Positions 19,016 to 64,000 of a stretch of DNA of 64,000 nucleotides are shown here, piece after piece. Every line of letters starts with the position of its first letter. Positions within the stretch are counted from its first letter, which is position 1. Source of the DNA: Candidatus Omnitrophota bacterium. Its GTDB lineage: Bacteria > Omnitrophota > Gorgyraeia > Gygaellales > Profunditerraquicolaceae. The notes under the pieces were generated by a model. The model made no database searches and was not told where the DNA came from. It saw only the letters and a list, made by a program, of their open reading frames with translations. The stretch lies in assembly GCA_025453395.1 (NCBI GenBank), contig JALOQK010000002.1, forward strand, positions 85,625 to 149,624, written 5' to 3'. Made by a program: the position numbers and the translations under genes.

Positions 19016-19088
19016 GCTGGAGTAGCTCAGTTGGTAGAGCACGTCCTTGGTAAGGACGGGGTCACGGGTTCAATTCCCGTCTCCAGCT
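19016..19088 (+). tRNA. tRNA-Thr (anticodon GGT)
   Basis: Cloverleaf drawn by hand: acceptor GCTGGAG/CTCCAGC, anticodon loop TTGGTAA, T-loop GGTTCAATTCC; CCA not encoded. Confidence 0.85.
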
Positions 19089-19306: not shown

Positions 19307-19377
19307 AGGAGCGTCGGTTAATGGTAAACCAACGGTCTCCAAAACCGTGACTGTAGGTTCAAGTCCTGCCGCTCCTG
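19307..19377 (+). tRNA. tRNA-Trp (anticodon CCA)
   Basis: Acceptor AGGAGCG/CGCTCCT, anticodon loop CTCCAAA, T-loop TTCAAGT; the classical tRNA-Trp-secE-nusG arrangement. Confidence 0.8.
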
Positions 19378-53695: not shown

Positions 53696-54076
53696 TTGCT
53701 AATGGAAAATAAAGGGGCAAGTTTTCAGAGTAATTATGATATAAAAAACAGGACCTACGCTTTCTCGGTTAGTATTGTTAATTTTGTTTCTGATTTACCA
53801 AAAGATAACGCAACTCACATTATTTCTAATCAATTGTTGGCTAGTGCTACAAGTGTAGGTGCTAATGTTATTGAAGCGCAAGCATCAAGTTCACGCAAAG
53901 ATTTTACAAATTTCTTGAATCATTCTTTGAAATCAGGAAATGAGACAAAATATTGGCTATGTTTGTTACGGGATACTGGCAGAGCCGAATATCCTAAAGT
54001 CAGCAAGCTTATTAATGAAGTAACTGAAATTAATAATATACTTGGAAAAAGCATTATTACTTTACGTAATAAGTAG
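53696..54076 (+). CDS. four-helix-bundle protein (TIGR02436-like; '23S rRNA intervening-sequence protein' family)
   Basis: 126 aa; the segment SNQLLASATSVGANVIEAQASSSRKDFTNFLNHSLKSGNETKYWLCLLRD matches the family's hallmark. Confidence 0.75.
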   Translation: MLMENKGASFQSNYDIKNRTYAFSVSIVNFVSDLPKDNATHIISNQLLASATSVGANVIEAQASSSRKDFTNFLNHSLKSGNETKYWLCLLRDTGRAEYPKVSKLINEVTEINNILGKSIITLRNK

Positions 54077-55222: not shown

Positions 55223-55660
55223 GTGATGTTACATCAGGTTGCTAAAAGCACAGTATCAAAAACAGCGCCTTATGAAAAACTCAAGTTTTATCAGGATATT
55301 TGCCAGATTCGCAAGTTAACCTATCAAATAACAGAGAATATTGTTCGTTCACATATGCGTTTAGCTTCTCAGATGAGAGATGCCGCGCGTTCTGCTAAGC
55401 AAAATCTAAGAGAAGGATATCGCAAAGGCACATTAGGAGAATTTATACATAGCATAAAGATAAGTCAGGGGTCTTTAGCAGAGTTAAGTGGCGACATGGA
55501 AGATTGCTTGGAAGACGGTATTATTCAGAAAACTGATTTTGATATTTTTATGAAGCTTTATCGTAGTGCAGACTATATGTCAAATAGGTATTTAATTTCG
55601 TTATATAAGATAGAAAAAGAAGGCACATGGCGCACTTTCGCTAAGCGTAGTGCTAAATAG
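55223..55660 (+). CDS. four-helix-bundle protein (TIGR02436-like), second paralog
   Basis: 145 aa (YEKLKFYQ.., GSLAEL..) of the same family as 53696-54076. Confidence 0.7.
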   Translation: MMLHQVAKSTVSKTAPYEKLKFYQDICQIRKLTYQITENIVRSHMRLASQMRDAARSAKQNLREGYRKGTLGEFIHSIKISQGSLAELSGDMEDCLEDGIIQKTDFDIFMKLYRSADYMSNRYLISLYKIEKEGTWRTFAKRSAK

Positions 55661-58034: not shown

Positions 58035-58265
58035 ATGATTGAAGTTAAACTTCCAGAGTTGGGCGAGGGGATCAAGCAGGCTACAGTTTCTTACTGGTTT
58101 TTTCAGGAAGGGCAAGCTGTAAAAGAAAAAGAAGAATTAGTTGAACTTACTACCGACAAAGCCACTTTTAATCTTCCCAGTCCGGCAAGCGGAGTATTAA
58201 AACAGGTGCTTATTAAGGAAGGCGAAACCATCGCCATCGGCACCGTCTTGGCAATAATATCGTAG
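58035..58265 (+). CDS. free-standing lipoyl/biotinyl attachment domain protein (resembles an E2 N-terminal lipoyl domain; possibly a truncated E2)
   Basis: 76 aa with the lipoyl-lysine motif TDKAT; the stop codon lies inside the left terminal inverted repeat of the downstream element. Confidence 0.7.
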   Translation: MIEVKLPELGEGIKQATVSYWFFQEGQAVKEKEELVELTTDKATFNLPSPASGVLKQVLIKEGETIAIGTVLAIIS

Positions 58266-58506
58266 ACGCTTTAGCTAACCCCATGTAGCACAATAACTTA
58301 TGAAACAAATACGCCATAGAAAAGGGGCACTTTGCCTTTCTGCCCCGAAAGGGCGCACTTGGCATTCATTTTTGCCAAGGTGCAATAGGCAAAGGTGCGT
58401 CCCAGTAATTAGCGTACTTTGCCTTCCTGTGATTTTAGTTTTTTAAACCCTACCCATATTTGTTTTGTAATCTTTTGTGTGGCATAGTATTAGCTAAAGC
58501 GTCTAC
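58263..58506. mobile_element. 244 bp element bounded by perfect 17 bp inverted repeats (GTAGACGCTTTAGCTAA / TTAGCTAAAGCGTCTAC) with an internal ~80 nt GC-rich extended hairpin (58324-58403); MITE or structured ncRNA
   Basis: Inverted repeats and nested complementary blocks (GGGGCACTTTGCC..GGCAAAGGTGCGTCCC; GCGCACTTGGCA..TGCCAAGGTGCA) read from the sequence. Confidence 0.55.
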
Positions 58507-58521
58507 AATGAATTATTTTAC

Positions 58522-58550
58522 TTGACAAGGGATTATTTGTTTGGTATATG
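58522..58550 (+). promoter_or_regulatory. sigma70-like promoter TTGACA-17-(TGg)TATATG upstream of the HTH/ACP/reductase genes
   Basis: Perfect -35 and an extended -10 read from the sequence. Confidence 0.5.
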
Positions 58551-58580: not shown

Positions 58581-58817
58581 GTGGATATGAAAGAGAAGAA
58601 AAGCAAAGAAATTATGACCGCAAAAGATGTGGCAGATTATCTGGGATTGCATCCTTTGACTGTGCACCGTTACGCCCGCCAGGGTAAAATTCCCGCGTTT
58701 AAGATCGGCACTGATTGGAGATTTCACCGTAAGTATATTGAGCGCTGGATCAAGGAAAAGTTGACTTGTCAGGCTAGGGCCCAAGTTGTACTCAACACAG
58801 AAAAACCGCAATCATAA
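58581..58817 (+). CDS. excisionase-family helix-turn-helix DNA-binding protein (likely ATG start at 58587)
   Basis: TAKDVADYLGLHPLTVHRYARQGKIPAFKIGTDWRF matches the Xis/MerR-like HTH_17 pattern. Confidence 0.7.
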   Translation: MDMKEKKSKEIMTAKDVADYLGLHPLTVHRYARQGKIPAFKIGTDWRFHRKYIERWIKEKLTCQARAQVVLNTEKPQS

Positions 58818-58842
58818 TTATATTTTTTAAGGAGGCTTATGC

Positions 58843-59094
58843 ATGGCAAAAAACATTGAAGAAATAAAGAAGGAAACGAGGAAGCTGGTAGCTGAAATAA
58901 CCGAGCGGCCGGAGGATGAGCTTAAAGACGAAAGCCGCTTTGTGGAAGATTTAGGCATAGACAGTATGATGGCCCTTGAGATTGTGGCAAGCCTTGAGAA
59001 AAAATATAAAATCGTTATCCCCGAAGAAGAAATCCCAAACGTGCGTTCCCTTGTCAACGTCTTTGCCATGCTGGAGAAGTTAATCAAAGCGTGA
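58843..59094 (+). CDS. acyl carrier protein
   Basis: 83 aa with the phosphopantetheine attachment motif LGIDSMMALEI. Confidence 0.85.
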   Translation: MAKNIEEIKKETRKLVAEITERPEDELKDESRFVEDLGIDSMMALEIVASLEKKYKIVIPEEEIPNVRSLVNVFAMLEKLIKA

Positions 59095-60134
59095 TGAAGA
59101 AAAAAGTTTTCCTTACCGGCGCAACCGGGCTTGTCGGCTCATACCTTGCCAAAATTCTTCTTTCCGAAGGCCATAAAATCATCGCTTTGGCCCGCTTCGC
59201 TTCAAATAAAAATCCCCCACAGAGAGTAAAAGAAGCTTTAAATTTATGGGGACAAATTGCCCTTGATAATCTTGAAGTTTTAGAAGGGGATATCTGCCTT
59301 GCGGATTTAGGATTAGACAAAAAATCCCGCGCGCGTTTAGATAAAATTCAGGAAATCTTCCACTGTGCGGCAATTACCGATTTAAATCTTCCCATAGAGA
59401 AACTGCGTCAAACCAATGTCACCGGCACAAAAAACATTCTGGAGTTGTCTTTATCGCTTAAGAAAAAATCCAAGCTTGAAAGAACCAGCCACATAAGTAC
59501 CGCCTATGTCTATGGAAATTATGCTGGCACCTTTACCGAGAAAGATTTAGATAAAGGCCAAAGTTTTCCCACCAATTACGAAAAATCCAAATTTGAAGCT
59601 GAGATTTTAGCCTATGATTACCGCAGGCAGGGCCTTTGGGTTGATATTTACCGGCCATCCATGGTTATCGGAGATTCCACAACCGGCCGCATTTTTGAAT
59701 CCAAACATATGTATCAGCTCTTGAAACTTTGTTCGCTTGAGATTTTTCCAGAGTTTCCCCTGAAAAATTCCTGGGCAAGCCTTGTCCCGGTAGATCTAAC
59801 CTGTCAGGCGATTTATATTTTATGGTCGCGCCACCAAAAACCAAATTGCACATTTCACCCGTTTCCGGCGCGCTTGGTGTCAATAGAGCAGATGCTTGAT
59901 ATCGCGGGAGAGATCATGGGTTTTAAGCCTCCTAAAGTTGTAAGTTTAGAGCAATTTAAGCCGGTTAATCTTACTCCGGCACAGCGCAAAATATTGCAGG
60001 AAACCATCTTTAACATAAATTTCCACACCGGCCTGGATTCAACTTACACCAATAATCTTCTTCAAGGTTACGGTTTTACCATGCCGGAAGTGGATGAAAA
60101 GATGCTTCGCGTGATCTTAGCGAAGAGCGCTTGA
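59091..60134 (+). CDS. NAD(P)-dependent epimerase/dehydratase-family (extended SDR; thioester-reductase-like) protein, ATGA-coupled to the ACP gene
   Basis: 347 aa with TGATGLVGSYL Rossmann and YxxxK catalytic motifs. Confidence 0.75.
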   Translation: MMKKKVFLTGATGLVGSYLAKILLSEGHKIIALARFASNKNPPQRVKEALNLWGQIALDNLEVLEGDICLADLGLDKKSRARLDKIQEIFHCAAITDLNLPIEKLRQTNVTGTKNILELSLSLKKKSKLERTSHISTAYVYGNYAGTFTEKDLDKGQSFPTNYEKSKFEAEILAYDYRRQGLWVDIYRPSMVIGDSTTGRIFESKHMYQLLKLCSLEIFPEFPLKNSWASLVPVDLTCQAIYILWSRHQKPNCTFHPFPARLVSIEQMLDIAGEIMGFKPPKVVSLEQFKPVNLTPAQRKILQETIFNINFHTGLDSTYTNNLLQGYGFTMPEVDEKMLRVILAKSA

Positions 60135-60195
60135 CAAAATAACAGCAGGAATATATAATTAACATTAATGTTAACAATGTATCCCCAGCTATATT

Positions 60196-60783
60196 ATGCA
60201 TTATTTACAGCTTAGCAAGTTAAATAAGAAGCCTTATTTTGATATAGGCCAAATAGCCGATACCTTAGGGATTACGAAGCCTTCGGCGCGGGTTATTGCC
60301 AGCCGTTATGTAAAACAAGGGATACTAATTAGGCTCAAAAACAATTGTTATGTTACTTCCGAGCGCTGGCAGGCGCTTGATTCAATGGCTTTGTTTTCTC
60401 TTGCCAATATCCTGCAGGTGCCTTCGTATATATCATTTCTTTCTGCTTTAGGCTTTCATGAAATATCTACCCAGGTTGCGCGTGGCGTTATTGAAAGTGT
60501 TTCTCTTAAGCGTTCCCGTTCTATCCGTGTAAAAGAGCAAGAATTTGTTTATTATAAACTTAGGAAAAAACATTATTTCGGTTTTCATAAGAAAGATGGT
60601 ATTTTTATGGCAACTGCCGAAAAGGCGCTTGCCGACGCTTGTTATCTTTATTCATTAAACCGTTATGCGCTTGATTTTTCCGCGCTTAACCTTTCCCGTT
60701 TAAATAAGCGCGAATTATCAGGTGTCATCAGGCATTACCCAAAACGTACGCAGCAGATAGTGAAAAAAATATGCAAGATTTAA
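60196..60783 (+). CDS. AbiEi-like antitoxin/transcriptional regulator (type IV TA / abortive infection)
   Basis: 195 aa with an N-terminal wHTH-like region; overlaps the downstream AbiEii-family gene by 13 nt. Confidence 0.5.
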   Translation: MHYLQLSKLNKKPYFDIGQIADTLGITKPSARVIASRYVKQGILIRLKNNCYVTSERWQALDSMALFSLANILQVPSYISFLSALGFHEISTQVARGVIESVSLKRSRSIRVKEQEFVYYKLRKKHYFGFHKKDGIFMATAEKALADACYLYSLNRYALDFSALNLSRLNKRELSGVIRHYPKRTQQIVKKICKI

Positions 60784-61439
60784 TTAAGCAGGAACAATTT
60801 GAGTTAGAGGTATTGGATAAGTTAAATACCGCGCGCCTGTTGAATAAACTTATTTTCTGCGGCGGCACGATGCTTAGGCTTTGTTATGGGCTCCAGAGAT
60901 TTTCTGTAGATCTTGATTTTTGGCTGGCGCGCAAGGTCTCCCACGCGAAACTTTTTAAAGAATTAAAAGATATTCTATCCGCTTCCTATACAATAAGAGA
61001 TAGTGCTAATAAATTTCACACTATTCTTTTTGAAATTAAATCAAGCCGTTATCCGCGCGCGCTAAAGATCGAAGTGCGAAAACAGGCAAGAAAGGTAAAA
61101 GCCGATACTGCCATTGCCTATAGCCAATATTCTAATACTCAAGTATTTCTTAAAGTTCTGTCTTTGCAAGATATGATGCGCAATAAGGCAGAAGCTTTCC
61201 TAAGCCGTAAAGAAGCCCGGGATATCTTTGATATGGAGTTTTTGTTTAAGAAGGGGATTTTGTTGGGGATCCCTAAGAAGGATATCGGCAAGATACTTTC
61301 TACCCTTGATGCGTTGACAAAGAAAGATTATCAGGTAAAATTAGGTGCGCTACTTTTGCCCGAACAGCGCGCCTATTACACAAAAGAAAATTTTAAGATT
61401 TTAAGAATGGCGTTAGAGGAGCGTATTTCTTCCATATAA
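60771..61439 (+). CDS. nucleotidyltransferase AbiEii/AbiGii toxin family protein
   Basis: 222 aa; CGGTMLRLCYGLQRFSVDLDFW matches the family's GG..DxD nucleotidyltransferase signature. Confidence 0.72.
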   Translation: MQDLIKQEQFELEVLDKLNTARLLNKLIFCGGTMLRLCYGLQRFSVDLDFWLARKVSHAKLFKELKDILSASYTIRDSANKFHTILFEIKSSRYPRALKIEVRKQARKVKADTAIAYSQYSNTQVFLKVLSLQDMMRNKAEAFLSRKEARDIFDMEFLFKKGILLGIPKKDIGKILSTLDALTKKDYQVKLGALLLPEQRAYYTKENFKILRMALEERISSI

Positions 61440-61440
61440 T

Positions 61441-62043
61441 ATGCAAAATACATTTTCCGAACAGCTTCTAGATTTGATTAAACAGCGCGCCAGTATCCGC
61501 CGCTACCAAGATAAGCCTGTGCCTAAGGAGATTTTGGATAAAATTATTGAGGCAGGCATTTGGGGGCCGTCTTTGATGGCTCCGGGATTTCAGCCGTGGA
61601 AATTTGTAGTTATACAGGATGCCGGCAAGATCAAGAAATTATCCGAGATTATGTTTGTCAAATCCAAACAATTAGGCGCTGGAGCAAATGTTATTACACG
61701 AATAAGCGCAGAAACAATTGCAAGTGCTAAAGTATTGGTGGTAATTTATAATTGTTCTGCAGTTGTTTCTTTTGTTAAAAGAATTAACGAGGATTATATG
61801 AAAATGGCTAGACAAGCTGAAATTGCAGCTATTTCAGCAGTTATACAAAATATGATTCTAGTCGCAGAAGGATTTGGCTTGGGTTCTTGTTGGCTTGATA
61901 CGCCTTTATTTTGTAAAGATGGAATAAATGAATTTGTTAAGCCTGAGGGTGAACTTGTGGCAATGCTTACTTTGGGTTATCCGGCAGAAAAAGGTAAAAG
62001 ATGCAAAAGAAAGCCGCTAAGTGAGTCAGTCATCTATGAGTAA
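61441..62043 (+). CDS. nitroreductase family protein
   Basis: 200 aa with a nitroreductase fold (RRYQDKPVPKEIL.., GLGSCW); base composition shifts within the gene at ~61680. Confidence 0.8.
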   Translation: MQNTFSEQLLDLIKQRASIRRYQDKPVPKEILDKIIEAGIWGPSLMAPGFQPWKFVVIQDAGKIKKLSEIMFVKSKQLGAGANVITRISAETIASAKVLVVIYNCSAVVSFVKRINEDYMKMARQAEIAAISAVIQNMILVAEGFGLGSCWLDTPLFCKDGINEFVKPEGELVAMLTLGYPAEKGKRCKRKPLSESVIYE

Positions 62044-62061
62044 GAAAGAGAGTCTTTTGAA

Positions 62062-63516
62062 ATGAACGAAAAATATGATGTAGTGATTATTGGGGCTGGG
62101 ATTGGGGGGCTTGTCTGCGGATGCTATCTGGCTAAAGCAGGGTTAAAGGTTATGATTGTAGAGCAGCATGATAAGCCGGGGGGCTATTGTACTTCTTTCC
62201 AGAGAAAAGGCTACACTTTTGATGCTGGAGGACATTATTTGGGTGGCATTAGAAATGGCATGCTTGGGAAAGTATTAACTGAAATAGGTGTTATGGACGT
62301 TATGAAGTTTAATCAGTTTAATCCGGTTGACACAATTATTTTTCCCGATTCCTCTGTTCATATTTATGCTGATATTGAAGATACAATAATGGATATGCAA
62401 AAAGTTTTTCCAAAAGAAAAGAATAATATTACTAATTTTTTTAAGTTTATACTCGACAAAGATTTTCTTTCGATTTACAAAAAGATTAAGAGGTTAAGTT
62501 TTCAATTAGTTTTAGATGAATACTTTGAAGATAATAGATTAAAAGCTAAGTTTGAAGTTTTGCTAGGGGGGCTAGGCTTACCTTCTGATAAAGTGTCTGC
62601 TGTTAGTGCGACACTTCTTTTCAGGGAAACAGTATGTGATCCAGGTTGGTATCCTAAGAAAGGATTGCAATCATTTCCTGATTTGCTATCCGATATCATA
62701 AGAAGCAATGGTGGTAAGATTATTTTCGGTAAGAAAGTTGCTAAAATATTATGTGAGAACAATGAGGCAAAAGGAGTTGTCTTAAATGATGGCGTTAAAT
62801 TCTTATCCAATGCTGTTATTTCAAACGCTGATGCGATACAAACTTTTACTAAGCTTATTGATTTGGAGAGTAAAGAAAAACAACTAGGAATAGATTACAT
62901 TATTTCTCCTTCTGCTTTTTTTGTTTATCTGGGCTTAAAAGATGGGGTTGAGAAAATAATAAAATCTCCTTCTAATATGCTGATTTTCTCGGATTATGAC
63001 TTAAAGAAGTATTACTGTAATTTTGATCATTTTGCAATAGATAATGAATTAATAAAATATGTTGTTTGTATTTTCTCATCTTTGCATTCGGGAGATAATA
63101 AAATAAAACGTGCTATGGAATTGTTCACAATAGTTCCGTTTAAGAGTGATGATTTCTGGAAAAGACACAGAGTATCTTTTATGGATGGCATGCTTGATTT
63201 TACTATTCGCAACATAGCTGGTTTAAGAGATTATATAGATATTAAGTTTAATGCCACACCAAGCACTTTTCATAAATATACTTTAAATAGTGATGGAGCT
63301 GCTTATGGTTGGGCTTCTACTCCTAATTTGATTACAAAGCCAATTTTTATGAGTCGTAGTTCTATAAGGAAACTATATTTAGCTGGACATTGGTGTAATG
63401 GTGGCTTGTGTCAAGGTGGAGTTCCGCAAGTAGCTGTTATGGGAAGGACAACAGCGCGCTCTGTAATTGAGGATGCTGGATTAAAATGGCAGTATAAATA
63501 TAATTTACTAATCTAA
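62062..63516 (+). CDS. FAD-dependent oxidoreductase of the phytoene desaturase (CrtI)/amine-oxidase family
   Basis: 484 aa with an N-terminal VVIIGAGIGGL..E..GG dinucleotide-binding motif; AT-rich. Confidence 0.75.
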   Translation: MNEKYDVVIIGAGIGGLVCGCYLAKAGLKVMIVEQHDKPGGYCTSFQRKGYTFDAGGHYLGGIRNGMLGKVLTEIGVMDVMKFNQFNPVDTIIFPDSSVHIYADIEDTIMDMQKVFPKEKNNITNFFKFILDKDFLSIYKKIKRLSFQLVLDEYFEDNRLKAKFEVLLGGLGLPSDKVSAVSATLLFRETVCDPGWYPKKGLQSFPDLLSDIIRSNGGKIIFGKKVAKILCENNEAKGVVLNDGVKFLSNAVISNADAIQTFTKLIDLESKEKQLGIDYIISPSAFFVYLGLKDGVEKIIKSPSNMLIFSDYDLKKYYCNFDHFAIDNELIKYVVCIFSSLHSGDNKIKRAMELFTIVPFKSDDFWKRHRVSFMDGMLDFTIRNIAGLRDYIDIKFNATPSTFHKYTLNSDGAAYGWASTPNLITKPIFMSRSSIRKLYLAGHWCNGGLCQGGVPQVAVMGRTTARSVIEDAGLKWQYKYNLLI

Positions 63517-63517
63517 T

Positions 63518-64000
63518 ATGAATATTTTCGGTATATCCGGTTTATTAGTCTTTATATCCGCCTTTTTAATAGGAGTTATCGCTTTTTCTAAAAGCAAGAG
63601 AACTAATGTCATTCTTGTTTTCAGTTCTTATGCTTTTTCTGTAGCTATTTGGGGGTTAGGTGCATATAAAATATCTACAATTAAGAATCCCGAAGATGCT
63701 TTTTGGTGGTGGAGATTAGTTTATATCATTGTCATCCTTATCCCCGTAGTGCATTATCATTTTATTTATGCTTTTTTAAAACTTCAAAATAAGGTCCACA
63801 AATATTTGTTACGTTTGTCATATATAACAGGCATTATTTTTATTGCTATAAACTTATGTTCTAGACCTCTATTTTTAGGTGGGGTGCGGTATGTTTTTAA
63901 TTCGTTCTATTACGTTGACTGGTTTATTTCTAAAAGTTGGATTTATTTAGCCTTTTATATTGGGTTTTATTGGATTCTTTTGGGGTATGTTTTTTGGCTT
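63518..64000 (+). CDS. polytopic integral membrane protein (3' partial; runs off window)
   Basis: ATG one nt after the preceding stop; the frame stays open to the window end and is dominated by hydrophobic/aromatic TM-like segments. Confidence 0.55.
   Translation, partial: MNIFGISGLLVFISAFLIGVIAFSKSKRTNVILVFSSYAFSVAIWGLGAYKISTIKNPEDAFWWWRLVYIIVILIPVVHYHFIYAFLKLQNKVHKYLLRLSYITGIIFIAINLCSRPLFLGGVRYVFNSFYYVDWFISKSWIYLAFYIGFYWILLGYVFWL

Follow-up and report, generated by a model that had tools for sequence, protein, structure and literature searches.

The closest described counterparts of the gene set analysed here are the 'ladderane-like' FASII clusters and the type II PKS of the aryl-polyene type. 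Unusual, 'ladderane-like' FASII clusters belong to anammox bacteria and some Deltaproteobacteria (Rattray et al. 2009, PMC2649909), and for Omnitrophota MAGs 'ladderane' calls by antiSMASH are on record (PMC9902471). Aryl-polyene and highly reducing type II PKS consist of a KS/CLF heterodimer, KR, DH and ACP (e.g. ApeO/ApeC; PMC8358021). A third relevant system is ElbD of myxobacterial ether-lipid synthesis, which combines domains for a reductase, an acyl-CoA synthetase, an ACP and an acyltransferase; a fatty acyl is activated, carried by the ACP and then reduced by a reductase of the NAD_binding_4 type (PMC9131029).

These systems were compared with a set of genes at the 3' end of a 64-kb stretch of DNA of uncultured Omnitrophota origin (the window, 64,000 nucleotides) and with a related set of 39 loci from Omnitrophota and from MAGs labelled Planctomycetia and Nitrospirota (the relatives). 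The relatives resemble ladderane-like clusters in their divergent FabF paralogues, dedicated ACP, FabZ, FabG and phytoene-dehydrogenase-like flavoenzymes, and further in their B12 radical-SAM enzymes, AMP-ligase and glycosyltransferases, whereas genes for a ketosynthase, a KR, a DH and a radical-SAM enzyme are all missing from the window. The relatives' B12 radical-SAM enzyme falls short of the ladderane-type model TIGR04072 (56.5 versus 360). In a term search of PMC2649909, 'thioester' occurred once, in general FASII background, and on that basis neither a stand-alone thioester reductase nor a coupled 7TM sensor kinase belongs to the description. The relatives are also like type II PKS in having a predicted active KS with a Cys-less CLF-like partner, a KR, an ApeI/ApeP-like DH and a small dedicated ACP, with no enoyl reductase encoded in the cluster; the window differs in lacking KS/CLF, KR and DH and in its additional CrtI-like, nitroreductase and sensor kinase genes. 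Aryl-polyene clusters release their chains by a thioesterase or acyltransferase route, whereas chain release here would be reductive, via the reductase. The ElbD domain set recurs as discrete proteins in a FadL/AMP-ligase/ACP/reductase variant among the relatives, but the acyltransferase domain and the AGPS homologue are absent here, the window has no AMP-ligase, and ElbB is HAD-like and not CrtI-like.

The set in the window is real and conserved, and is a streamlined copy of a putative lipid or polyketide cluster that is widespread across the Omnitrophota and in MAGs labelled Planctomycetia and Nitrospirota. The original prediction, made from the letters and ORFs of the window, had listed an HTH protein, an ACP, an SDR, a nitroreductase, a CrtI-like enzyme and a membrane ORF, and all were found where it had placed them, on the + strand and with Pfam matches (Table 1). 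What it missed was that the set is a trimmed form of a larger KS/CLF-KR-DH-ACP cluster.

Table 1. Features of the cluster and its surroundings, in window coordinates.
Feature	Position	Strand	Evidence or remark
REPIN/MITE-like structured element	58259..58509	.	between lipoyl-protein stop codon and cluster promoter
Promoter-like site before HTH_17 gene	58522..58550	+	TTGACA-17-TATATG, TGn ahead of -10 hexamer; read from sequence
HTH_17 (MerR/excisionase-type) DNA-binding protein	58587..58817 (alternative GTG start 58581)	+	PF12728, E 2.4e-16
ACP, 83 aa	58843..59094	+	PF00550, 50.7 bits, E 2.1e-13
Thioester-reductase-type extended SDR, stand-alone, 346 aa	59091..60134 (or from 59094)	+	PF07993 NAD_binding_4, 173 bits
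Sigma-70 consensus promoter	60131..60159	+	TTGACA-17-TATAAT, 12/12 matches
AbiEi antitoxin	60196-60783	+	PADLOC AbiEi, 96.6 bits
AbiEii nucleotidyltransferase toxin	60771-61439	+	PF08843, 68.4 bits; PADLOC AbiEii, 299.7 bits
Nitroreductase-fold FMN enzyme	61441..62043	+	PF00881, 95.8 bits, E 4e-27
CrtI/CrtD-fold FAD oxidoreductase	62062..63516	+	PF01593, 78.4 bits
HisKA_7TM-GAF-HATPase histidine kinase, N-terminal 7TM sensor domain	63518..64000	+	full gene on source contig

The ACP kept the DSM phosphopantetheine-attachment serine motif, missed the cut-offs of all AcpP equivalog models and matched the ACPs of the fuller clusters with E values of 1e-25 to 4e-33; it is the dedicated carrier protein of the cluster. 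For the SDR the best PDB sequence matches were the MxaA R, a PKS TR and CAR R domains. Its AlphaFold model (pLDDT 94) shares its fold with R domains such as those of MxaA (4u7w), CAR (5msu) and AusA (4f6c), which made up all of the top 16 Foldseek matches (TM 0.72-0.82, against 0.67-0.69 for epimerases), and the motifs TGxTGxxG, S136, Y163 and K167 are invariant. By sequence and fold the SDR is predicted to be a terminal thioester reductase, which bears out the idea of a carrier-protein-dependent set with a thioester-reductase-like SDR. A sugar epimerase was rejected on the R-domain PDB matches and the higher TM to R domains. The R domains of PKS/NRPS and CAR have the same Rossmann and Ser-Tyr-Lys motifs and an adjacent carrier protein; unlike those of megasynthases, the SDR and its ACP are free-standing, and the score against the curated model TIGR01746 was 148.9, below the cut-off of 213.35. 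The two genes had been described as ATGA-coupled, and the translational coupling is there, but the junction reads GTGATG (ACP stop TGA at 59092-59094, SDR start at GTG 59091 or ATG 59094). ACP and SDR genes that overlap, as those of the window do, were also found in L023, L025, L028, L033 and L037 (gap -4) and L038 (gap -1).

The frequencies of neighbouring genes were compared between loci of the close SDR subfamily and those of distant SDR homologues, with denominators that vary by gene. A kinase of the same family lies downstream of the SDR in 31/33 close loci versus 1/35 distant ones, and an upstream ACP was present in 22/32 versus 0/38, a KS in 21/32 versus 11/38, a CrtI-like gene in 14/33 versus 0/35, a nitroreductase in 5/33 versus 0/35 and an upstream HTH_17 gene at the cluster head in 11/28 versus 0/35. 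These counts show that the grouping exceeds chance and the adjacency is not random; the set recurs in many genomes, and a second locus, L008, has the minimal order ACP-SDR-CrtI-CrtI-kinase. The original prediction had named two outcomes that would count against it, a sugar-epimerase identity for the SDR and a random adjacency of the genes. Neither is the case: the SDR is predicted to be a thioester reductase and the genes are co-conserved.

In syntenic relatives the full order is KS/CLF-like pair, FabG, ACP, FabZ, TR, GMC oxidase, nitroreductase, CrtI and kinase. L163, L003 and L017 (41-50% SDR identity) carry this full architecture at the chromosomal position of the window's set, where the Iso_dh-Ldh-lipoamide DH-lipoyl genes form a flank common to these loci and the window, and in L003 the downstream genes are shared as well. 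The first KS lacks the Cys and both His in 28/28 sequences and the second has Cys-His-His in 37/37, which points to an active ketosynthase with a catalytically dead CLF-like partner. The DH of the relatives gave ApeI/ApeP-like Pfam matches. Five or six genes of L163 and L003 are absent from the window, and neither in its 64 kb nor in the next 10 kb were homologues of KS, FabG, FabZ or AMP-ligase, other genes for building the acyl chain or loading the ACP, or a phosphopantetheinyl transferase seen. Given the fuller cluster at the same site in syntenic relatives, the chain-building genes (KS/CLF, KR, DH) and the GMC oxidase have been lost from the window lineage.

The region had been described as interrupted by an Abi module, and this was confirmed: AbiEi and AbiEii are an overlapping pair inserted into the cluster with its own promoter, the sole perfect TTGACA-17-TATAAT site, which overlaps the last four bases of the SDR and lies 37 bp upstream of AbiEi. 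The same slot holds the GMC oxidoreductase gene in the closest syntenic relatives, L163 and L003, and L003 adds a different AbiEii pair. A strong promoter had been placed ahead of the HTH gene. A site with an extended -10 element is present there, but the last base of its -10 hexamer fails the rule of the promoter tool, which did not list it, and the perfect consensus stands before AbiEi instead.

On balance we consider it probable that the window encodes a streamlined cluster in which flavoenzymes tailor an acyl chain bound to the ACP and the reductase releases it, with a dedicated sensor kinase coupled to the process. The full cluster has an HTH_17 regulator at its head and combines a type II FAS/PKS-like chain-building set (ketosynthase, CLF-like partner, FabG-type ketoreductase, FabZ/ApeI-like dehydratase and dedicated ACP) with a stand-alone thioester reductase, a sensor histidine kinase of the 7TM-GAF type and a variable redox tailoring part (CrtI-like flavoenzyme, nitroreductase-fold enzyme, GMC oxidoreductase or B12 radical-SAM enzyme). 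Besides its losses the window lineage has gained the AbiE toxin-antitoxin pair, leaving the HTH_17 protein, ACP, reductase, nitroreductase, CrtI-like enzyme and kinase. Domain identities, reductase fold, co-conservation, synteny and gene loss are results of the analysis; for substrate, step order, product and kinase stimulus we infer the following. Enzymes from other parts of the genome would load an acyl chain onto the dedicated ACP. The CrtI-like FAD enzyme would then desaturate, isomerise or saturate the chain, a step in which the nitroreductase-fold FMN enzyme may take part, and the reductase with NAD(P)H would free it as an aldehyde or alcohol of the fatty or polyenyl kind. The co-conserved kinase may sense the lipid or couple its production to the membrane state, a role suggested by gene order.

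The inserted AbiE pair and the transposase-related repeats that lie to either side of the cluster fit ongoing erosion as well as they fit streamlining. The element upstream of the cluster has perfect 17-nt terminal inverted repeats, GTAGACGCTTTAGCTAA, and arms of 53 nt that are 77% complementary (RNA fold -96 kcal/mol, z = -8.4), and its ends also flank a Y1_Tnp gene (L001 13653-14574). This Y1 (REP-associated) transposase element lies just past the kinase gene, outside the window. With five or six genes gone, the set could be a decaying relic that makes nothing after the loss of KS/CLF, KR and DH and is being eroded by mobile elements. We consider this unlikely, given that none of the six cluster ORFs is truncated and each aligns with its homologues over the whole length (97-100% coverage), that all invariant alignment positions are retained (29/29 in the SDR, 33/33 in the CrtI-like protein) along with the ACP serine motif, that two deletions left the ACP-SDR coupling exact, and that L008 independently has the same minimal order.

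The kinase, missed in the original prediction, is the reductase's tightest partner. Sequence obtained past the 3' edge completed the last ORF, showing that the 161 residues read as a 'polytopic membrane protein' are the N-terminal part of a sensor histidine kinase (7TM-GAF type, 729 aa), whose gene extends 1,707 bp beyond the window edge (source contig, L001 11457-13646); the membrane domain is real, but it belongs to a HisKA_7TM sensor kinase and is neither an enzyme nor a site of the pathway. In seven loci (L012, L013, L019, L024, L036, L040 and L041) the stop codon of the SDR gene overlaps the start codon of the kinase gene. Such co-translation with its most constant neighbour would also suit a signal module, in which a diffusible or membrane signal derived from fatty acids (aldehyde or alcohol) is made by the ACP, reductase and flavoenzymes and sensed by the kinase, with c-di-GMP turnover as output, resembling in logic DSF (RpfF/RpfB/RpfC/RpfG) or CAI-1 (CqsA/CqsS). 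Genes for a receiver-only response regulator and a GAF-HD-GYP protein come after the kinase in many relatives, PilZ and GAF-GGDEF genes occur further downstream on the contig of the window, and a second architecture of FadL, AMP-ligase, ACP, reductase, radical-SAM enzyme and kinase exists. This reading, which draws on gene order, is nevertheless doubtful: a synthase homologous to RpfF or CqsA is absent, no response regulator or HD-GYP gene was found next to the window kinase, and several relatives have glycolipid genes after the kinase (MGDG synthase-like, LpxL-like acyltransferase, GT2), which point to envelope lipids instead.

The original prediction had read the set as a small carrier-protein-dependent tailoring pathway on a horizontally acquired island headed by an excisionase-family regulator. 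The ACP, thioester reductase and co-conservation uphold a carrier-protein-dependent set; the island and the Xis-like reading, like the membrane enzyme, are not supported. The AT shift is real, with GC falling from 0.42 to 0.32 across 58-64 kb (lower in 60-64 kb) against ~0.43 for the whole window, the HTH_17 gene at the head is of the excisionase domain family (TIGR01764 domain, 43.6 bits), and Abi genes and bracketing inverted-repeat elements, one with a Y1 transposase, are present. An island is still highly improbable, since site and core flanks are common to L003, L017 and L163, the CrtI and nitroreductase orthologues are AT-shifted likewise in every genome examined, the Pfam gene lists show no integrase in the 10 kb to the left or right, and HTH_17 genes recur at the head of related clusters.

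The nitroreductase-fold enzyme reached no NCBIfam equivalog at cut-off and has homologues in the same cluster in L003, L004, L010, L018, L039, L084, L085, L121 and L163; it is an optional tailoring member. The CrtI-family flavoenzyme appears, from its model scores, to be distinct from the curated carotenoid enzymes. A precedent for such a gene acting on lipids is UfaD, a phytoene dehydrogenase-related FAD enzyme that forms a double bond in a fatty acyl chain during furan fatty acid synthesis (PMC7380195); UfaD differs in using O2 and phospholipid-bound chains and in its neighbours, UfaM and UfaO, with no ACP or reductase (PMC7380195). That the enzyme is a true phytoene or carotenoid desaturase, with the other genes unrelated, is already disfavoured and can scarcely be right: the best fold match of its model (pLDDT 90) is the gamma-carotenoid desaturase 4rep (TM 0.82) and its top NCBIfam matches are carotenoid enzymes, but it falls far under the cut-offs of the curated models (117 versus 238 for TIGR02734, 123 versus 640 for another), phytoene/squalene synthase is absent from the Pfam-annotated neighbourhoods, and its homologues are tied to KS/ACP genes. 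In a reciprocal scan anchored on CrtI, homologues of at least ~30% identity were almost always adjoined by KS/CLF-ACP-FabZ-FabG genes, and beside these closer homologues the kinase was often found too.

The same-strand gene set described in the original prediction was present in the window, and ORF listing and profile searches confirmed it with corrections. Its interpretation stood in part: the carrier-protein set and the co-conservation of its genes were supported, but the framing as an island with an Xis-like regulator and a membrane protein was not. The window comes from a Candidatus Omnitrophota MAG. The stop codon of the ACP gene and the start codon of the SDR gene share bases at GTGATG. 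The last gene, described as a membrane protein, is not transporter-like but extends on the source contig into a sensor histidine kinase. Beyond the 3' edge, the completed kinase gene is followed on the source contig by genes for a Y1 transposase, a small protein without assignment, PilZ, a second HTH_17 protein and an SMC-like ATPase, with no biosynthetic genes among those 3' of the kinase (to 10 kb).

Features of the window, of its source contig (L001) and of two related loci (L003, L004); window numbering is used unless a locus is named
Feature	Position	Strand	Basis
Two tRNA genes	19016-19088; 19307-19377		Rfam
Two PF05635 genes	53696-54076; 55223-55660		
Hairpin-forming element, 250 nt	58259-58509		
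HTH_17 protein	58581/58587-58817	+	ORF listing and profile search
Acyl carrier protein (ACP), 83 aa, DSM serine motif	58843-59094	+	ORF listing and profile search
Extended SDR, NAD_binding_4 (thioester reductase) type, 346/347 aa	59091/59094-60134	+	ORF listing and profile search
Sigma-70 consensus promoter	60131-60159		
AbiEi/AbiEii overlapping pair	60196-61439	+	ORF listing and profile search
Nitroreductase-fold protein	61441-62043	+	ORF listing and profile search
CrtI-family flavoprotein	62062-63516	+	ORF listing and profile search
HisKA_7TM-GAF-HATPase sensor histidine kinase, 729 aa	from 63518, past the window edge	+	source contig
Y1 transposase gene, REP-associated type	L001 13653-14574 (~65714-66635 in window numbering, outside the window)		
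PilZ and GAF-GGDEF genes	L001 15100-15462; 19069-20235		
Second HTH_17 gene and SMC-like ATPase gene (1,088 aa)	L001 15547-19072		
HTH_17 and SMC-like ATPase pair	L003 18931-21020		
AbiEii-type pairs	L003 12406-13563; L004 7862-9278		
Receiver and GAF-HD-GYP proteins	L004 15390-16956		

An SDR-alignment scan of one genome per species gave 80 loci, the flanks of which were searched with the window proteins and with representatives of recurrent neighbours. The close SDR subfamily, with 39 loci in Omnitrophota and in MAGs that carry the label Planctomycetia or Nitrospirota, was compared with the distant SDR homologues. The same 7TM kinase family was found downstream of the SDR on the same strand in 31/33 close and 1/35 distant loci, and the most faithful neighbour of the reductase is this sensor kinase. 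Upstream of the SDR an ACP was found in 22 of 32 close loci (distant, 0/38) and ketosynthases (KS) in 21 of 32 (distant, 11/38). A CrtI-like gene (14/33) or a nitroreductase (5/33) beside the SDR and an HTH_17 gene upstream of it (11/28) were likewise seen in the close subfamily, each with 0/35 in the distant set. In seven loci (L012, L013, L019, L024, L036, L040 and L041) the SDR stop overlaps the start of the 7TM-GAF kinase, with gaps between -7 and -1 nt. Such translational coupling between a biosynthetic enzyme and a sensor kinase is unusual.

In the reciprocal scan, in which the CrtI-like protein served as anchor on metagenome contigs, homologues down to ~30% identity almost always adjoin genes for KS, ACP, FabZ and FabG; the kinase is often there too, and the SDR was found in a subset of these loci. 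This two-way neighbourhood analysis ruled out random adjacency of the cluster genes, and co-occurrence of the ACP, SDR, nitroreductase and CrtI-like genes, which the original prediction suggested checking, was borne out. The number of homologues exceeded 1,600 for the SDR (E <= 1e-10) and 1,300 for the CrtI-like protein (E <= 1e-20). Judged from genome sequences, the cluster family is widespread in Omnitrophota; the cluster is real and conserved and points to an uncharacterised, widespread pathway in which enzyme and kinase are coupled in an unusual way.

The SDR is a predicted thioester-reductase-type enzyme of a distinct stand-alone subfamily. Residues 8-241 matched PF07993 (NAD_binding_4) in the profile search with 173.1 bits (gathering score 20.1), and the name is limited to thioester-reductase-type, in a subfamily of its own, because the score for the curated TIGR01746 was below its cut-off (148.9 vs 213.35 bits). 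Residues T9, G10, T12, G13, G16, S136, Y163 and K167, which make up the TGxTGxxG motif and the Ser/Thr-Tyr-Lys residues, were invariant in a 34-sequence alignment. The best sequence matches among PDB structures were the myxalamid terminal reductase MxaA (E 1.4e-22) and a PKS thioreductase, followed by thioester reductase (R) domains of carboxylic acid reductases, AusA and an M. tuberculosis NRPS; sugar dehydratases and epimerases matched far more weakly. An AlphaFold model built on 34 homologues (pLDDT 94) was compared with the PDB using Foldseek, and ranks 1-16 were all R domains (E 1e-23 to 1e-17, TM 0.72-0.82), with epimerases and dehydratases from rank 17 on (TM 0.67-0.69). The structure prediction proposed for deciding between a thioester reductase and a sugar epimerase thus placed the enzyme nearer to the R-domain fold, and the epimerase alternative was ruled out by the sequence matches together with the fold comparison. 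For the putative action on a carrier-protein thioester the support is genomic, namely the overlap of the ACP gene with the SDR start, seen in the window and in L023, L025, L028, L033, L037 and L038.

The CrtI-like protein has a carotenoid-desaturase (CrtI/CrtD) fold in its predicted structure (4rep, TM 0.82, E 2e-34) and an N-terminal FAD-binding motif with invariant G11, G13 and G16. Its scores were below all the curated cut-offs, namely TIGR02734 (117 vs 238.1), CrtID (123 vs 640), carotenoid isomerase (122 vs 587) and CrtD (104 vs 550). No phytoene/squalene synthase or other carotenoid genes were found in the Pfam-annotated neighbourhoods; the neighbours of its homologues are KS, ACP, FabZ and FabG genes. 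A published case of an enzyme of this type desaturating fatty acyl chains is UfaD (PMC7380195).

The fullest relatives of the cluster (L163, L003, L017 and L004) have the order HTH_17, a 340-aa protein of no assigned family, KS, FabG, ACP, FabZ-like dehydratase, KS, SDR, GMC oxidoreductase, nitroreductase, CrtI-like enzyme and kinase. The first KS of the relatives has neither the catalytic Cys nor the two His in 28/28 sequences and the second retains all three residues in 37/37, and the two form a pair of KS/CLF type (CLF, catalytically dead KS partner). The dehydratase has ApeI/ApeP-like Pfam matches. No homologues of KS, FabG, FabZ or AMP-ligase were found at E <= 1e-3 in the 64-kb window, and none in the next 10 kb. 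Upstream of the cluster, the window, L163, L003 and L017 share genes for an isocitrate/isopropylmalate dehydrogenase family member, a malate/lactate dehydrogenase, a lipoamide dehydrogenase and a lipoyl protein, and the genes downstream of the window cluster are also common to L003. Given that these flanking genes are shared, the cluster occupies an inherited chromosomal position. Comparison of the gene orders indicates that the chain-building genes and the GMC oxidase have disappeared from the window lineage, and that the supposed island is a trimmed pathway inherited vertically. At a second locus, L008, the minimal order is the same (ACP, SDR, CrtI, CrtI, kinase), and in a third architecture FadL, an AMP-ligase and a B12 radical-SAM enzyme stand in place of the KS set, again with the kinase last.

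The original prediction had pointed to an AT-shifted, horizontally acquired region, and the GC content does drop across the cluster, but the conserved synteny and the likewise shifted orthologues speak against recent arrival. The CrtI-like and nitroreductase genes are 5-12 GC points under their neighbours in L001, L003, L004, L010 and L017, i.e. in every genome examined, and the shift therefore belongs to the genes themselves. The L017 genes for the SDR and the kinase are likewise lower in GC than their neighbours. The low GC suggests a distinct history or composition of the cluster tail.

The HTH_17 protein does carry an excisionase-type HTH (TIGR01764 domain, 43.6 vs 28.8 bits), but a role as excisionase of a mobile element was not supported, since no integrase gene was found within 10 kb on either side and the gene also stands first in the cluster at the corresponding site of L003, L017 and L163. 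The 315-bp gap 5' of this gene holds a 250-nt hairpin-forming element with a very stable fold (z = -8.4) and perfect 17-nt terminal inverted repeats (GTAGACGCTTTAGCTAA). The same ends flank the Y1 transposase gene just 3' of the kinase, and ~60 nt of end sequence are common to the two elements; the cluster is therefore bracketed by related repeat elements, in what looks like a pair of RAYT gene and REPIN. The bracketing is read as local repeat activity that may have helped the deletions; it is not proof that the whole segment was mobile, against which the conserved synteny counts. A composite transposon, suggested by the matching repeats on the two sides, was not adopted because of this synteny and because the transposase belongs to the REP-associated Y1 type. 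In the related locus L009, too, a homologous Y1 transposase lies 3' of the kinase. Across the window, Rfam matches at gathering score were confined to the two tRNA genes, with none in the cluster or in the structured intergenic element.

The Abi module said to interrupt the cluster is a genuine insert with its own promoter. The two genes, for the antitoxin (AbiEi) and the nucleotidyltransferase (AbiEii) of an AbiE type IV toxin-antitoxin system, overlap by 13 nt, and the pair scored 68.4 vs 22.5 bits for PF08843 and 96.6 (AbiEi) and 299.7 bits (AbiEii) in PADLOC. A perfect sigma-70 consensus (TTGACA-17-TATAAT, 12/12) overlaps the last four SDR bases and lies 37 bp 5' of AbiEi. The nitroreductase, CrtI-like and kinase genes further downstream may by now be driven by the insert as well. 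AbiEii-type pairs also lie inside the cluster in two relatives, L003 and L004, and the three pairs differ in position and antitoxin type; the flanks of the 80 loci anchored on the SDR gave no other AbiEii matches. Shared ancestry, a hot spot for insertion or a stabilising effect on the cluster could each explain the recurrence.

The cluster is of a carrier-protein-dependent type II lipid/polyketide type, outside any named family; none was assigned because the reductase-kinase coupling was not found in the published descriptions consulted and the window copy has no KS/CLF. The closest published description is that of the 'unusual FASII' or 'ladderane-like' clusters of anammox bacteria and some Deltaproteobacteria, which comprise divergent FabF genes, phytoene-dehydrogenase-like enzymes, B12 radical-SAM enzymes and an AMP-ligase (PMC2649909). 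The window has neither a radical-SAM gene nor a divergent FabF, and the B12 radical-SAM enzyme of the relatives scored 56.5 vs 360 for the lipid-biosynthesis model TIGR04072. The logic of aryl-polyene and highly reducing type II PKS clusters (PMC8358021) is matched by the core of the relatives (KS/CLF, ketoreductase, dehydratase and ACP), but KS/CLF, ketoreductase and dehydratase are absent from the window and the next 10 kb. The window copy thus does not have the KS/CLF feature that defines both kinds of cluster, and coupling of a free-standing thioester reductase with a 7TM kinase appears in neither description, as far as the available parts of PMC2649909 and PMC8358021 extend. The Elb ether-lipid cluster is not a match, with ElbB being HAD-like and the ligase-ACP-reductase logic alone in common (PMC9131029). 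'Ladderane' calls by antiSMASH with no assigned function have been reported in Omnitrophota (PMC9902471). Automated pipelines would probably label the present cluster 'ladderane' or 'aryl polyene'.

Omnitrophota have not been cultured, are often ultra-small and may depend on a host, and we know of no work on their lipids or signalling; literature searches on Omnitrophota with thioester reductase and on the function of HisKA_7TM gave nothing specific. The observed parts of the cluster are a dedicated carrier protein, a coupled chain-releasing-type reductase, two flavoenzymes of the same conserved cluster and a sensor kinase. An ACP-bound acyl chain would be modified by the CrtI-like enzyme, and perhaps also by the nitroreductase-fold enzyme, and reductive release would then yield an aldehyde or alcohol. 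Enzymes with genes elsewhere in the window genome would have to make or load the chain. The window copy is a reduced form of the cluster, and its chemistry lies beyond computation.

The product may be an envelope lipid or a signal. Glycolipid-type genes lie 3' of the kinase in several relatives. In many relatives (e.g. L004) a receiver protein and a GAF-HD-GYP protein are encoded 3' of the kinase, and PilZ and GAF-GGDEF genes lie near it on the window's contig; c-di-GMP components thus recur beside the kinase. By analogy, the core of ACP, thioester reductase and coupled 7TM-GAF kinase might, in Omnitrophota and neighbouring phyla, be a synthase-plus-receptor cassette not described before, with a lipid aldehyde or alcohol as its signal; we consider this rather unlikely. 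If it were true, differences in the signal from lineage to lineage would come from the CrtI-like, nitroreductase, GMC and radical-SAM genes. The logic would resemble that of DSF/CAI-1 quorum sensing, the parts of which are unrelated: compared with the DSF/Rpf cassette the kinase is present, the crotonase is absent from the cluster and the receiver and GAF-HD-GYP genes occur in relatives only, and the likeness is in logic, not homology. Sensing of the cluster product by the neighbouring kinase is a testable idea. Carrier protein, reductase and sensor kinase form the invariant core, and chain-building genes can be lost; as three small soluble or membrane proteins the core members offer a concrete, cheap experimental entry.

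Two genes for four-helix-bundle '23S rRNA intervening sequence proteins' (PF05635) stand in the window among the central-metabolism genes (Iso_dh, Ldh) and are absent at the same positions in L003. Past the window edge, the second HTH_17 gene (PADLOC mad1-like) is followed by the SMC-like ATPase gene (PADLOC mad3, 232 bits), possibly a partial MADS-like defence pair, and the same pair lies downstream of the cluster in L003.
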